Below, in pieces: positions 30,244 through 33,102 of a DNA stretch of 50,819 bases. The stretch is from the NCBI GenBank assembly GCA_964603295.1, contig CAZRUG010000005.1, positions 1 to 50,819 of the forward strand, read 5' to 3'. Within the stretch, counting starts at the first letter, position 1. The number at the start of each line of letters is the position of its first letter. The DNA is from Candidatus Woesearchaeota archaeon. Lineage in GTDB: Archaea; Nanobdellota; Nanobdellia; Pacearchaeales; GW2011-AR1. The notes under the pieces are model-generated. The model searched no databases and had not been told where the DNA came from. It saw only the letters and a program-made list of their open reading frames with translations. The position numbers and the translations under genes are program-made.

Positions 30244-33102
30244 ATGACTTATGTAAAAAGATTGGTGATGCAAGGTTTCAAAAGTTTTGTTAAAAAAACA
30301 GAACTACCTTTCACAGAGGGAATTAATGTAATCTTAGGTCCAAACGGTTCTGGAAAATCAAATGTTTCTGATGCACTATGTTTTGTTCTTGGTCGTTTAA
30401 GTATAAAATCAATGCGAGCAGCAAAAGCATCAAACTTAATCTTCATGGGTTCAAAAGCAGCAGGCCCAGCAAAAGAAGCATCAGTAGAAATTGTATTTGA
30501 CAATGAAAACCAAACATTTAGTTTAAACAGCAAAGAAGTTGGGATCAAAAGAATAGTAAGAAAAAACGGACAAAGCATTTACAAAATAAATAATGAAACA
30601 AAAACAAGACAAGATGTTTTATCTCTTTTAGCTCAAGCAGGAATAGACCCAAACGGCTTCAATATTATCCTTCAAGGAGAAATCCAAAACTTTGTAAAAA
30701 TGCACACAGAAGAAAGAAGAAAAATAATTGAAGAAGTTTCAGGAATATCAATCTATGAATCAAGAAAAGAAAAAGCACTCAAAGAATTAAACAAAACAGA
30801 TGAAAAACTAAAAGAAACAACAGCTGTCTTAAGAGAAAGAACCTCTTATCTAAACAACTTAGAAAAAGAAAGACAACAAGCACTCAAATACAAAAAACTT
30901 GAAGAAGATATTAAAAAATTTAAAGCAAGTATTATTTACTCAGACTTAACAAAGAAAAAAAAAGAAGCTGAAGTAACTGAAAAGGAAATTGAAAAAAAGA
31001 ATAAGGAAATTGAAAAAGTAAAATCAAAAACAAAAGAAATTGAACAAGAAATAAAAAAATTAGAAAATGAGATAGATGAAATAAACAAAAAAATACAAAC
31101 TTCAACTGGATTAGAACAAGAAAAACTTAATCAAGAAATTGCAAATCTTAGAGCAGAGCTTGCAGGAATGAAAGTAAGATATGAAAATCATGAAAAAAAG
31201 TTAGAATCATTTGAAAAACAAAAAGCAGAACTAAATGAAGCAATAAATAATCAAAACCTATTATTAAAAGAATTAAAAAAAGAATCTCCCGCAGTTGCAA
31301 AAAAAGAAAAAGAATTAGAAATAAAGAAAAAAGAAATTGAAAAATTAGAACAAGACAGAAAAAAATTCTATACAATAAAAACAGAAATCAAGTCAATAAA
31401 AGACAGGCTTCAAGATAAATACAATCTTTTAAACAAGTATCAAAATGAATCAGACTTTTTATTGCAACAAATACAATCTCTTTCAATAGAATTATTTGAT
31501 AAAAAAACAAATAAAGAAAAACTTCAAGAACTTAAATCAAAGCTCGAGGAAAAAAGAGCAATGCTTAAGAATTTTGAGCAAAGAGAAAAAGATTTAGAAA
31601 AACAAGCTTTTGCAAGTGAACATGAGATTAATGAACAAAAAAAAGTAATTGAAAAAATTGAAGAACTAGACATCTGTCCATTATGTAAAAACAAAATAAC
31701 TGCATCACATATTAACTCAATCCACGACGAAATCAAACCAAAAATAGATGAATTAAATAAAACAATTAACAAATCAGATAAAGAACTAAATGATATTTAT
31801 AATAAAAAACAAATGCTTGAAACAGAAATTGAACAAATTAGTTCAGAAGTTTCAAAAAGAGAATCAGATTTAATAAAACTTGCAAATATCAATGACAAAA
31901 ATACCCAAATAAAAGTTCTTCAAGAAAGCATTAACAACATAAAAAATGAAATTCAGGAACTAGAAAAAAGAAAGAAAAACCTTGAAAAAAACTTTGATGA
32001 AAATTCAAATATTGAACAAAAATACGAAACAGCACAAATAGAAGTCAGAGAAATATCATTAAGAAGCGAGGAAAACATTAATTCAGAGATTTCATTTAAA
32101 CAAAGAGAAATAGAAAGAATGGAAATTTCATTAAAACAAGTTCTAAGAGATGAAGAAGAAATCAAAGAAGAGATAAAAGAAATTAATAAAAATATTCAAT
32201 CAAAAGAAGAGCTACTAGAAAAATCAAGAAAACAAGAAGAAACATTATCTAAAAAATTCCAGGCACAAATTGAAAAAAGAGATTTAATGCAAAAGCAAAT
32301 TAGAGAAAAAGAAAATGAATTAATTAATAGACAACACGAAATACACAGAATTGAAGATATGACAAATAATTTCAAAATCGACAAAGCAAGAATTGGTGCA
32401 GAGATTGAAAACTTAGAAATGGAAATGCTTGAATTTCCAAATATAGAATTAATTAAAACAAATAAAGAATCTCTAAAAGAAAAACTTCACAAAGCACAAG
32501 ACACATTATTAAGAATTGGTTCTGTAAATCTTCGTTCACTAGAAGTTTATGATGAAGTTAAAAAAGAATATGATACAATAAATGAGAAAGTTGAAACAAT
32601 TTCTAAAGAAAAAGAGGGAATATTAAAAATAATTCATGAAATTGACATAAAGAAAAAGAAAACATTCCTTAGAACATTAAATGAATTAAATGAAATCTTT
32701 TCTAGAAACTTTTCACAACTTAGCACAAAAGGCCAAGTTAATTTAGAACTTGAAAACAAAAAATCACCTTTTGAAGGTGGCGTAAACATTATTGTTAAAA
32801 CAGGGCATGGAAAATATTTTGATGTAACCTCTCTTTCTGGAGGAGAACAAACACTTGTAGCACTTTCATTAATCTTTGCGATCCAAGAACTAAATCCCTA
32901 TTGTTTTTACATCTTAGATGAGATAGACGCTGCATTAGATAAAAGAAATTCAGAAAGACTTGCAAATCTATTAAAAAAATACATGCAAAAAGGTCAATAC
33001 ATTGTAATTACCCACAACGACGAAATTATAAGCAATGCAACAAACTTATATGGAGTTTCGATGCATGATGGAATAAGCAAGGTAACAAGTTTAAAGCTAT
33101 AA
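30244..33102 (+). CDS. smc: SMC-family chromosome ATPase with a central CxxC (zinc-hook-like) motif and no recognisable hinge
   Basis: The heads are SMC-type: [52 protein letters not shown] and [11 protein letters not shown]. The protein is 952 aa. CPLC lies at residues 478-481 (nt 31675-31686). Confidence 0.85.
   Translation: [952 protein letters not shown]

Follow-up and report, generated by a model that had tools for sequence, protein, structure and literature searches.

A Pacearchaeota SMC protein with a putative Rad50-type zinc hook in place of the hinge

Known SMC-like architectures

Reviews draw a sharp line between SMC proteins, with a hinge and a kleisin, and Rad50, with a zinc hook and Mre11 (PMC10586767). 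The closest precedent for the protein described here is an engineered one, the B. subtilis Smc(Zh) of Burmann et al. (2017; PMC5344682), in which the P. furiosus Rad50 hook takes the place of the hinge; growth with this Smc is normal, and the dependence on arm length is kept. Both proteins combine heads and full-length arms of the SMC type with a Rad50-type hook. However, Smc(Zh) is a laboratory chimera, whereas the hook SMC is natural and ancient and occurs in many clusters (50% identity) of an archaeal lineage. The arm-length dependence of Smc(Zh) can be likened to the fixed length of the natural family (see below).

With canonical archaeal Smc (Pyrococcus; TIGR02169, PF02463 + PF06470) the protein shares head sequence and fold, the catalytic motifs, the joint and the arm length, the arms being colinear at every residue as far as the apex, and its gene occupies the genomic position of the DPANN hinge-type smc. 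It differs in carrying a CPxC turn of ~19 aa instead of a ~200-aa hinge and in scoring below the equivalog cutoff. The Rad50/SbcC hook (PF04423; 1L8D, 6ZFF, 5GOX) has the same CPxC tipping an antiparallel coiled coil, and P. furiosus Rad50 (CPVCGRELTDEH) also shares the extended motif C-P-x-C-x-x-x-h-T-x-E-H, but the heads and arms of the present protein are not Rad50-like (≤123 bits against cutoffs of ≥700) and no Mre11 was found next to its gene.

Three further systems come partly close. The ASRP (ClsN/coalescin, Sph1/2; NF045487) are archaeal members of the SMC superfamily with an apical zinc-hook motif (PMC9389158), but they constitute a separate family with a 593-position model, on which the 952-aa protein reaches 135 bits (cutoff 300) as against 548 bits for SMC. 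The "hinge-less" marine SMC variants attributed to Actinobacteria (PMC12153180, 2025) have true SMC heads and arms and no hinge; they are bacterial and explicitly lack CXXC, whereas the hook of the Pacearchaeota clade is invariant. Lamassu LmuB is a coiled-coil ABC ATPase, often with a CPxCG hook-like motif, but it measures ~650 aa, its arms are short and its Walker B motif usually shows an E-to-Q change (PMC10586767), while E893 is intact here and the PADLOC LmuB score is 86 bits. The first-pass annotation knew of no description of the architecture. This holds insofar as no report of a natural zinc hook on a true SMC orthologue was found in the literature searched, but it has to be qualified by the partial precedents of ASRP/ClsN, LmuB, Smc(Zh) (PMC5344682) and the hook-free hinge-less SMCs (PMC12153180).

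Heads, arms and the missing hinge

The gene (30244..33102, + strand, as are all features below) is a single ATG ORF of 952 aa plus stop, recognized by Pfam SMC_N and NCBIfam SMC_prok_A, in a window (the whole stretch of DNA analysed) of 50.8 kb. All peptides quoted from it in the first-pass annotation were found in its translation. Hook-type proteins are presently annotated as "chromosome segregation protein SMC" or "SMC family protein". The N-terminal half of the ABC ATPase head (residues 1-167; 30244..30744) matches the Pyrococcus Smc heads 5xei, 5xns and 4i99 and contains the Walker A motif GPNGSGKS (residues 32-39; nt 30337-30360) and the Q-loop LQGEI, which begins at residue 143; its assignment also draws on the succession of strands and helices in the AlphaFold2 model. 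The C-terminal half (residues 827-952; 32722..33099) matches the Pyrococcus Smc C-head chains 3kta_B and 1xew_Y and contains the signature LSGGE (residues 864-868; nt 32833-32847), the Walker B motif ILDEID (residues 890-895; nt 32911-32928), the D-loop AALD and the H-loop ITHN (H924). All six ATPase motifs are complete and invariant, the invariant residues in a 39-sequence alignment being K38, S39, Q144, S865, G866, G867, E868, D892, E893, D895 and H924.

Pfam SMC_N covers residues 3-945 (E=3.2e-48). In the PDB the best match was Pyrococcus Smc (3.9e-106; its heads ranged from 1e-86 to 1e-106) versus ~1e-14 for Rad50 heads. Among family models, SMC_prok_A gave 548 bits, the best Rad50 model 122.8 bits (cutoff 700) and the ASRP model 134.7 bits. 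Both SMC equivalog cutoffs were missed, with 547.9 versus 729 bits for TIGR02169 and 529.2 versus 567 bits for TIGR02168, and this gap corresponds to the hinge positions left without a match. A Foldseek search with the full-length model returned at the top condensin Smc4, the Pyrococcus Smc head-coiled coil-joint structure 5XEI (target TM 0.74) and the Pyrococcus Smc head with ScpA, 4I99 (target TM 0.90). Judged from these sequence scores, the heads are of SMC type, which leads Rad50 by more than 400 bits; they do not group with Rad50, in line with the original reading of them as SMC and not Rad50 heads.

The hinge model SMC_hinge (PF06470) had no Pfam match in the whole protein and none at E≤10 in the central 160-283 aa. 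Since the same model detects hinges in equally distant relatives (1e-29 to 1e-35 in P0148, P0152, P0156, P0217 and P0232), the missing match can be read as a real absence. Moreover, the full-length AlphaFold2 model (mean pLDDT 80) is helical from residue 168 to 826 with short breaks, and its centre is a 12-residue turn (475-486) with no globular domain. By profile search and predicted structure, the hinge is absent from the 952-aa protein, as the first-pass annotation had suspected.

The two strands, each of ~300 residues, are predicted to build an antiparallel coiled coil with an SMC-type head-proximal joint. The N-terminal arm (residues 168-474; 30745..31665) is modelled as helices 168-206, 219-345, 352-416 and 424-474, with a joint-like break at residues 206-218 (nt 30859-30897) and a second break at 347-350 (nt 31282-31293). 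The C-terminal arm (residues 487-826; 31702..32721) comprises helices 487-586, 590-605, 614-728, 741-756 and 769-826, and its breaks at 607-612 (nt 32062-32079) and 754-767 (nt 32503-32544) pair with those of the N-terminal arm. The first-pass annotation had proposed shortened arms, which the alignments contradict. Both arms are colinear with the nearest hinge-bearing SMCs as far as the apex: the N-terminal arm follows SMC_prok_A positions 1-470 and residues 1-478 of the hinge-type P0148, and residues 1-466 and 486-951 align with 1-489 and 703-1155 of P0164, so that ~19 hook residues stand where the hinge-type SMC has ~213 hinge residues. The length difference of ~190-200 aa is the hinge itself.

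Membership in other hook-bearing or defence families was considered and rejected. ASRP/ClsN was dismissed on the score against the NF045487 cutoff of 300 bits and on the full-length arms; Lamassu LmuB on PADLOC LmuB scores of ≤86 bits, the retained E893 and a housekeeping gene context; Wadjet JetC on PADLOC scores and gene context; and Rad50/SbcC on head models far below cutoff and the lack of an adjacent Mre11/SbcD in the window and seven orthologous loci.

The apical CPxC turn

The predicted apical turn (residues 475-486; 31666..31701) was delimited from the translation, the invariant C/P/C residues, the Rad50_zn_hook match and the match to 1L8D. It contains C478-P-L-C481 (nt 31675-31686), two of only four cysteines in the protein, at relative position 0.50, just where the first-pass annotation had placed it. 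An apical CxxC was found in 238 of the 238 full-length members collected, down to ~37% identity, none of which has lost a cysteine; it reads CPxC in 237 and CFIC in one. The motif was likewise present in all 120 close homologues; of the 116 relatives of the clade's most divergent member, 115 have it. In the 39-sequence alignment (38-70% identity), no residue between 289 and 715, a stretch of ~430 arm positions, is invariant except C478, P479 and C481, and no further Cys or His is invariant throughout the clade. Its placement is equally constant: 75% of the 238 members are 950-956 aa long, and in the divergent set the hook lies at 0.537 ± 0.002 of the distance from Walker A to the signature. 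With the protein's own composition, the number of CxxC motifs expected by chance within ±10 residues of the midpoint is 3.7e-4. At the level of sequence, the conservation and central position of the motif are far beyond chance.

The best Pfam match of the central segment is Rad50_zn_hook (profile positions 4-51 of 52), and this model was matched by the central segments of 25 of 27 members at E≤0.01, with a best value of 6.8e-07. Against the P. furiosus Rad50 hook structures 1L8D and 6ZFF, the family profile gives in-register alignments, and the common extended motif, C-P-x-C-x-x-x-[IMVL]-T-x-E-H, goes beyond the cysteines themselves. Individually, the profile matches to Rad50 hooks in the PDB are weak (E 0.02-0.045), which is what so short a motif (12 residues) on a helical hairpin should give, and hairpins of the prefoldin type reach similar scores. 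A single-sequence phmmer search of the PDB with the central 160 aa returned no hook; the family profile alone found one. A model of the hook (pLDDT 95) was compared by Foldseek with 350,542 chains, of which both chains of 1L8D, a Rad50 zinc hook, took ranks 1 and 2; 6ZFF_B fits the model at TM 0.80 and rmsd 2.6 Å. The likeness to the Rad50/SbcC hook noted at the outset is thus borne out by profile and by structure comparison, and assignment of the apex as a Rad50-type hook is supported by sequence, profile and predicted fold. Zinc binding and hook-mediated dimerisation are inferred.

Orthology, alternative readings and meaning

In a neighbour-joining tree of 329 head columns, built without Rad50 or ASRP outgroups, the hook forms together with four hookless short forms made one clade (452 of 500 bootstraps), which adjoins hinge-type SMCs of 1100-1160 aa; among these sisters is a sequence labelled Ca. 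Woesearchaeota. Strict monophyly of the hook forms received no support (0 of 500 bootstraps) and was rejected, the four hookless short forms falling inside or beside the clade. Source annotations of the hook clade are Nanoarchaeota or Pacearchaeota (DPANN). The hook gene sits in the same neighbourhood as the hinge-type smc of related DPANN (P0148 and P0164 loci), the common neighbours being RNAP-NusA-S12-S7-EF2, a FixG_C-like envelope protein, an acetyltransferase, RNase HII, DnaG, Lhr and dCMP deaminase. Both the head phylogeny and synteny point to the hook gene as the orthologue of the Woesearchaeota hinge-type smc.

Close relatives of ~780-840 aa in Pacearchaeota have no cysteine motif whatever. 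These hookless forms are nearer to the PMC12153180 variants than the hook forms are.

Lenient Pfam searches of unannotated window ORFs and tblastn of an Asgard ScpA/ScpB pair against Pacearchaeota DNA detected neither ScpA nor ScpB, the ground covered being the 50.8-kb window and five orthologous loci (~110 kb). The hinge-type DPANN loci likewise have no adjacent kleisin, so that this result is uninformative. No Mre11/SbcD gene flanks smc in the window, nor does one flank it in the seven orthologous loci L001-L005, L086 and L087. The window's only Metallophos ORF (24979-25710) lies directly downstream of the Lhr helicase and 4.5 kb upstream of smc, presumably as the usual Lhr-MPE arrangement and not as Mre11. 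An endonuclease-IV-like AP_endonuc_2 occurs in the wider neighbourhood, and RNase HII in the orthologous loci.

We consider it probable that the protein is the archaeal chromosome-organising SMC orthologue in Pacearchaeota, its ~200-residue hinge replaced by a Rad50-type zinc hook of ~19 residues. Such a hook in place of the hinge is feasible, since the engineered Smc(Zh) supports normal growth (PMC5344682). The protein might instead be an additional, specialised SMC-derived paralogue, like ClsN/ASRPs, working alongside a hinge-type SMC, for example in compartment formation or bridging. Archaea do have hook-bearing SMC-related proteins with distinct roles (ASRP/ClsN, PMC9389158), a second, hinge-type SMC could lie elsewhere in the genome, the view being that of the contig window and orthologous loci, and no kleisin gene was seen near the hook gene. 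Yet the protein reaches 548 bits on the SMC model but 135 (cutoff 300) on the ASRP model, whose 593 positions contrast with full-length arms colinear with canonical SMC, and the hook gene holds the very neighbourhood of the hinge-type smc in related DPANN. Moreover, no hinge occurs in the ~240 clade members or in Pacearchaeota relatives among the matches listed, and the hinge-type neighbours in the tree all lie outside the hook clade. We regard this paralogue as unlikely.

The Rad50-like apex and the nearby repair genes (Lhr with Metallophos, AP_endonuc_2, RNase HII) would also suit a functional substitute for Rad50, in which an SMC-derived ATPase took over DNA-end tethering and repair in reduced genomes. 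That role appears very unlikely: the heads are SMC-type by more than 400 bits, the SMC-specific joint and canonical arm length are kept, no Mre11/SbcD is adjacent in the window or the seven orthologous loci, the Metallophos ORF lies directly behind Lhr, and the hinge-type smc of Woesearchaeota has the same repair genes as neighbours. The CPxC might also cap the hairpin within one chain, as a structural or redox element, with dimerisation through arms or heads, or with a monomeric protein. Zinc binding and dimerisation of the hook form are predictions, the hook matches from Foldseek and from the PDB profile search carry little statistical weight, and the relatives of ~780-840 aa show that a hookless apex is tolerated in the lineage. 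However, two cysteines cannot complete a tetrahedral zinc site in one chain that offers no other invariant Cys or His, the Rad50 likeness extends past the cysteines to 47 of the 52 Pfam profile positions, and absolute conservation at the geometric apex, down to ~37% identity, fits a contact between protomers. A purely intramolecular cap is, in our judgement, quite unlikely.

For the hook-type SMC orthologue, the following mechanism is proposed. Each protomer would fold back so that its N- and C-terminal halves together make one SMC-type ABC ATPase head, with an antiparallel arm of canonical length bearing the CPxC at its tip. A dimer is predicted in which the tips of two protomers meet around a single shared Zn2+, each CPxC supplying two of its four cysteine ligands; this would give the closed V or rod that the hinge otherwise provides. 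As in Smc-ScpAB, DNA would then be entrapped and loops extruded through ATP-driven engagement of the heads, with a kleisin probably taking part. The kleisin partnership, a condensin-like role and the status of only SMC of the genome are likewise inferred.

The Pacearchaeota SMC is the natural version of a domain swap previously made only by engineering. The family crosses the SMC/Rad50 divide in nature, with all SMC-specific features kept except the hinge, and its tight length and constant hook position lend independent natural support to a "tuned arm length". A dedicated model would better annotate the hook SMCs, which now fall under the equivalog cutoff, and the compact hook form may suit structural work as a minimal SMC. 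If it is the sole SMC, the dispensability of the hinge has already been tested by evolution, over long timescales and in many lineages, which bears on models of DNA loading and loop extrusion where the hinge binds DNA or acts as a gate. A bolder scenario, which we hold tentatively and as falling just short of an even call, is that Pacearchaeota use a hinge-less SMC as their only chromosome-folding motor, its hook captured from Rad50, and that sub-lineages then lost the hook and distal arms to give the forms of ~780-840 aa. If this is true, core SMC function would need neither a hinge nor a specialised apex, and loop-extrusion models requiring hinge-DNA or hinge-head contacts would be constrained.

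SMC heads and the hinge region

The hook-type smc gene (30244-33102, + strand) is a single ATG-initiated ORF encoding 952 aa, and all peptides quoted in the first-pass annotation are found in its translation. The view that the heads are of the SMC rather than the Rad50 type was confirmed by Pfam, NCBIfam, PDB-sequence and Foldseek comparisons. Pfam SMC_N covers residues 3-945 (3.2e-48), and NCBIfam SMC_prok_A gave 548 bits, with residues 3-474 colinear with profile positions 1-470; of the rival NCBIfam models, ASRP reached 135 bits and all Rad50 models ≤123 bits. In the PDB sequence search the Pyrococcus Smc head constructs were best (3.9e-106 to 4.8e-86), with Rad50 heads at ~1e-14. 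The full set of Walker A, Q-loop, signature, Walker B (E893), D-loop and H-loop is present, and the ATPase motifs are invariant in a 39-sequence alignment (38-70% identity). Foldseek comparison of the full-length AlphaFold2 model (mean pLDDT 80) placed condensin Smc4 among the best matches, with target TM values of 0.74 for 5XEI (Pyrococcus Smc head-coiled coil-joint) and 0.90 for 4I99 (Pyrococcus Smc head with ScpA), while Rad50 did not appear before rank 9.

The proposed absence of a hinge was likewise borne out. Pfam SMC_hinge had no match in the whole protein, nor, at E≤10, in central segments of 160 and 283 residues. Relatives at a similar distance, including the short-armed P0232, P0156, P0217 and P0152 (833-963 aa) and the 1142-aa P0148, scored 1e-29 to 1e-35 with the same model, which makes the negative result meaningful. 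The AlphaFold2 model is helical from 168 to 826 with brief interruptions, and has at its centre a turn of 12 residues (475-486) in place of a folded hinge domain.

Shortened arms, also proposed initially, were not found. In domain-level alignments with hinge-type relatives, residues 1-474 correspond to 1-478 of P0148, residues 1-466 and 486-951 to 1-489 and 703-1155 of P0164, and residues 496-951 to 670-1139 of P0155. Both arms are colinear with those of the nearest hinge-type SMCs as far as the apex, so that ~19 residues replace ~213 residues (hinge and transitions) of the relatives. As read from these alignments, the length gap (952 versus 1133-1160 aa) is the hinge. Moreover, arm length is tightly fixed in hook-type SMCs, with a median of 952 aa and 75% of members at 950-956 aa.

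The apical CPxC motif

Translation placed C478-P-L-C481 at nt 31675-31686, as annotated. The protein has 4 cysteines in total; at its amino-acid composition, chance alone would give 3.7e-4 CxxC motifs no farther than 10 residues from the midpoint. The motif is kept in the full-length hook members with a single CFIC variant: it was present in 120/120 close homologues, in all full-length members of the deeper clade recovered by an exhaustive representative search, and in 115/116 relatives of P0147, the most divergent member, the exception being a 798-aa form without a hook. Overall, an apical CxxC was found in 238 full-length, intein-free sequences (CPLC 151, CPVC 34, CPKC 20, CPTC 18, CPIC 8, CPMC 5, CPFC 1 and CFIC 1). 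Between positions 289 and 715 of the 39-sequence alignment, C478, P479 and C481 are the sole invariant residues. The motif is also always central, lying at 0.537 ± 0.002 of the Walker A-to-signature distance in the divergent set.

The suggested likeness of the apex to the Rad50/SbcC hook was upheld by consensus, Pfam profile and predicted fold. The extended consensus, C-P-x-C-[KQR]-x-K-[IMV]-T-x-E-H, is in register with P. furiosus Rad50 CPVCGRELTDEH of PDB 1L8D in a comparison of the family profile with the PDB, where 1L8D (E 0.045) and 6ZFF were both in the top seven matches. Pfam Rad50_zn_hook was matched singly by 25 of 27 central 91-aa segments at E≤0.01 (best 6.8e-07), and the divergent P0147 also matches it; the protein studied here scored 1.5e-4 and 21.9 bits, slightly below the 24.3 cutoff. 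AlphaFold2 predicted residues 425-535 (mean pLDDT 95, pTM 0.74) as two long antiparallel helices with a 13-residue turn between them. With this model, Foldseek returned chains B and A of 1L8D, titled 'Rad50 coiled-coil Zn hook', as the best two of 350,542 PDB chains (probability 0.99), followed at lower ranks by human 5GOX, Chaetomium 7ZQY and P. furiosus 6ZFF (chain B, TM 0.80, rmsd 2.6 Å). The E-values of these hook matches are weak (~0.02) and prefoldin-type hairpins score alike; the structural match of the model, taken alone, is supportive rather than decisive. At the sequence level, similarity beyond the cysteines favours capture of the hook from Rad50 over a convergent origin.

Phylogeny, synteny and genomic neighbourhood

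In a neighbour-joining head tree (329 head-domain columns, 105 full-length representatives, 500 bootstraps), a clade of 18 hook representatives and four hookless forms of ~780-804 aa was recovered in 452/500 replicates, and its neighbours were hinge-type SMCs of 1100-1160 aa. Strict monophyly of the hook forms alone was never recovered (0/500), the hookless forms being nested in or adjoining the hook clade. Mean head identity to the 952-aa protein was 65% in the hook set versus 48% in the others. The source names are Nanoarchaeota, Candidatus Pacearchaeota or 'archaeon' for hook forms, Candidatus Woesearchaeota for P0148, the hinge form next to them, and Candidatus Pacearchaeota for the cluster of the hookless P0146.

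Hook and hinge loci share RNase HII, DnaG-Toprim, acetyltransferase, Lhr helicase and dCMP deaminase genes, the RNAP-NusA-S12-S7-EF-2 cluster and a FixG_C-like protein directly downstream. This synteny supports the hook gene being a positional orthologue of hinge-type smc rather than an extra paralogue. From synteny and phylogeny, the hook form may be the only SMC of its genomes.

Six relatives with SMC heads, P0139 (804 aa), P0142 (801), P0144 (779), P0146 (781), P0212 (838) and P0362 (798), have neither hinge nor hook; a cysteine motif is lacking in these and in locus L090, and neither SMC_hinge nor Rad50_zn_hook gave a match. Each of their arms is ~75 residues shorter, four of them lie inside or beside the hook clade, and a secondary loss of hook and distal arms is suggested. 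They resemble the 'hinge-less' marine SMCs without a hook (PMC12153180). SMC matches of just ~740-790 aa from Candidatus Saccharibacteria and other uncultured bacteria (L028, L032, L035 and L061, among the matches listed) indicate that much-shortened SMCs may also occur in CPR bacteria. At the other extreme of length, the hook-type smc of P0099 (1484 aa), P0121 (1479), P0127 (1483) and P0393 (1496) apparently contains an intein that carries a LAGLIDADG domain (for P0099 and P0393, PF14528 and PF14890 are on record), and alignment resumes at residue 31-38, in the Walker A region. Hinge-type forms of 1660-1800 aa (P0160, P0166, P0170 and others) were listed beside them, and an intein is also present in the Lhr helicase of a Woesearchaeota relative.

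By gene content, the window (G+C ~29%; no RNA genes in tRNA and Rfam scans) is a core archaeal chromosomal region encoding RNAP B and A, a NusA-like KH protein, S12, S7, EF-2, EF-1alpha, a DnaG-like Toprim protein, an endonuclease-IV-like protein, Lhr helicase with a phosphoesterase, SerRS, S10, ThyX and thymidylate kinase. RNAP subunits A (43693-47184, − strand; 1163 aa with Rpb1 domains 1-5) and B (47188-50442, − strand; 1084 aa) are single ORFs; on the contig of P0164 both are split, into A' (845 aa) and A'' (377 aa) and into B'' (496 aa) and B' (601 aa). The ORF next to smc on its upstream side, 28941-30146 (− strand, opposite to smc), encodes a 401-aa protein without a Pfam match; this has an N-terminal hydrophobic segment, two internal repeats of ~95 aa, a Cys-rich C-terminal half and a transmembrane segment at the C-terminus. 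The downstream envelope-like protein of ~400-450 aa (33236-34444, − strand), with a faint FixG_C Ig-like match and a C-terminal transmembrane segment, is kept in the window, in loci L001 and L002 and at the P0164 locus, adjoining hook-type and hinge-type smc alike. A 436-aa fusion (2221-3531, − strand) of an AAA_17/AAA_18 kinase-like N-terminus with a dCMP/cytidine deaminase C-terminus lies close to ThyX (408 aa) and thymidylate kinase. The small archaeal genome also encodes a two-component pair (25745-27537, + strand), comprising a 478-aa PAS histidine kinase and a stand-alone 119-aa receiver-domain response regulator. A divergent MutS-like archaeal ATPase may be encoded by 5909-7633 (− strand), whose 574-aa product matches MutS domain V weakly (27 bits, below the cutoff).

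Neither the window nor ~110 kb of orthologous loci yielded a gene for a kleisin, ScpB, Rad50 or Mre11. Since hinge-type DPANN relatives also have no kleisin gene adjoining smc, its absence near the hook gene is uninformative either way. The sole Metallophos ORF of the window, a calcineurin-like phosphoesterase (24979-25710, + strand), lies directly downstream of the Lhr-type helicase (22305-24947, + strand; DEAD, Helicase_C, WH_Lhr and DEAD_assoc), a position that suggests an Lhr partner rather than Mre11.

Possible working and relation to known systems

By analogy with Rad50, the CPxC motifs of two protomers would share one tetrahedral Zn2+, joining the arm tips into the closed dimer otherwise supplied by the hinge, and the part from arms to heads would work as in Smc-ScpAB. 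The feasibility of a hook in place of a hinge has been shown experimentally in a laboratory version: B. subtilis Smc with the P. furiosus Rad50 hook for its hinge, Smc(Zh), supports normal growth and retains periodic arm-length dependence (PMC5344682). Conversely, Rad50 given a MukB hinge is functional in fission yeast (PMC6969161).

This engineered Smc(Zh) is the system that the archaeal protein would most resemble in its working. The archaeal protein differs from canonical SMC in having no hinge and in scoring below the curated cutoff, and from Rad50 in head type and in the adjacent Mre11, of which there is none at the examined loci. Identity as ASRP (135 bits) or as LmuB was rejected, both scores being below the model cutoffs; the natural hook-bearing Rad50/SbcC, ASRP/ClsN and LmuB are families separate from its own. 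The 'hinge-less' marine SMCs reported in 2025 are bacterial and explicitly without CXXC (PMC12153180). The initial impression that such a hybrid was undescribed stands in part: the openly accessible literature searched held no account of a zinc hook on an SMC orthologue from nature, but Smc(Zh) is an engineered precedent (PMC5344682).
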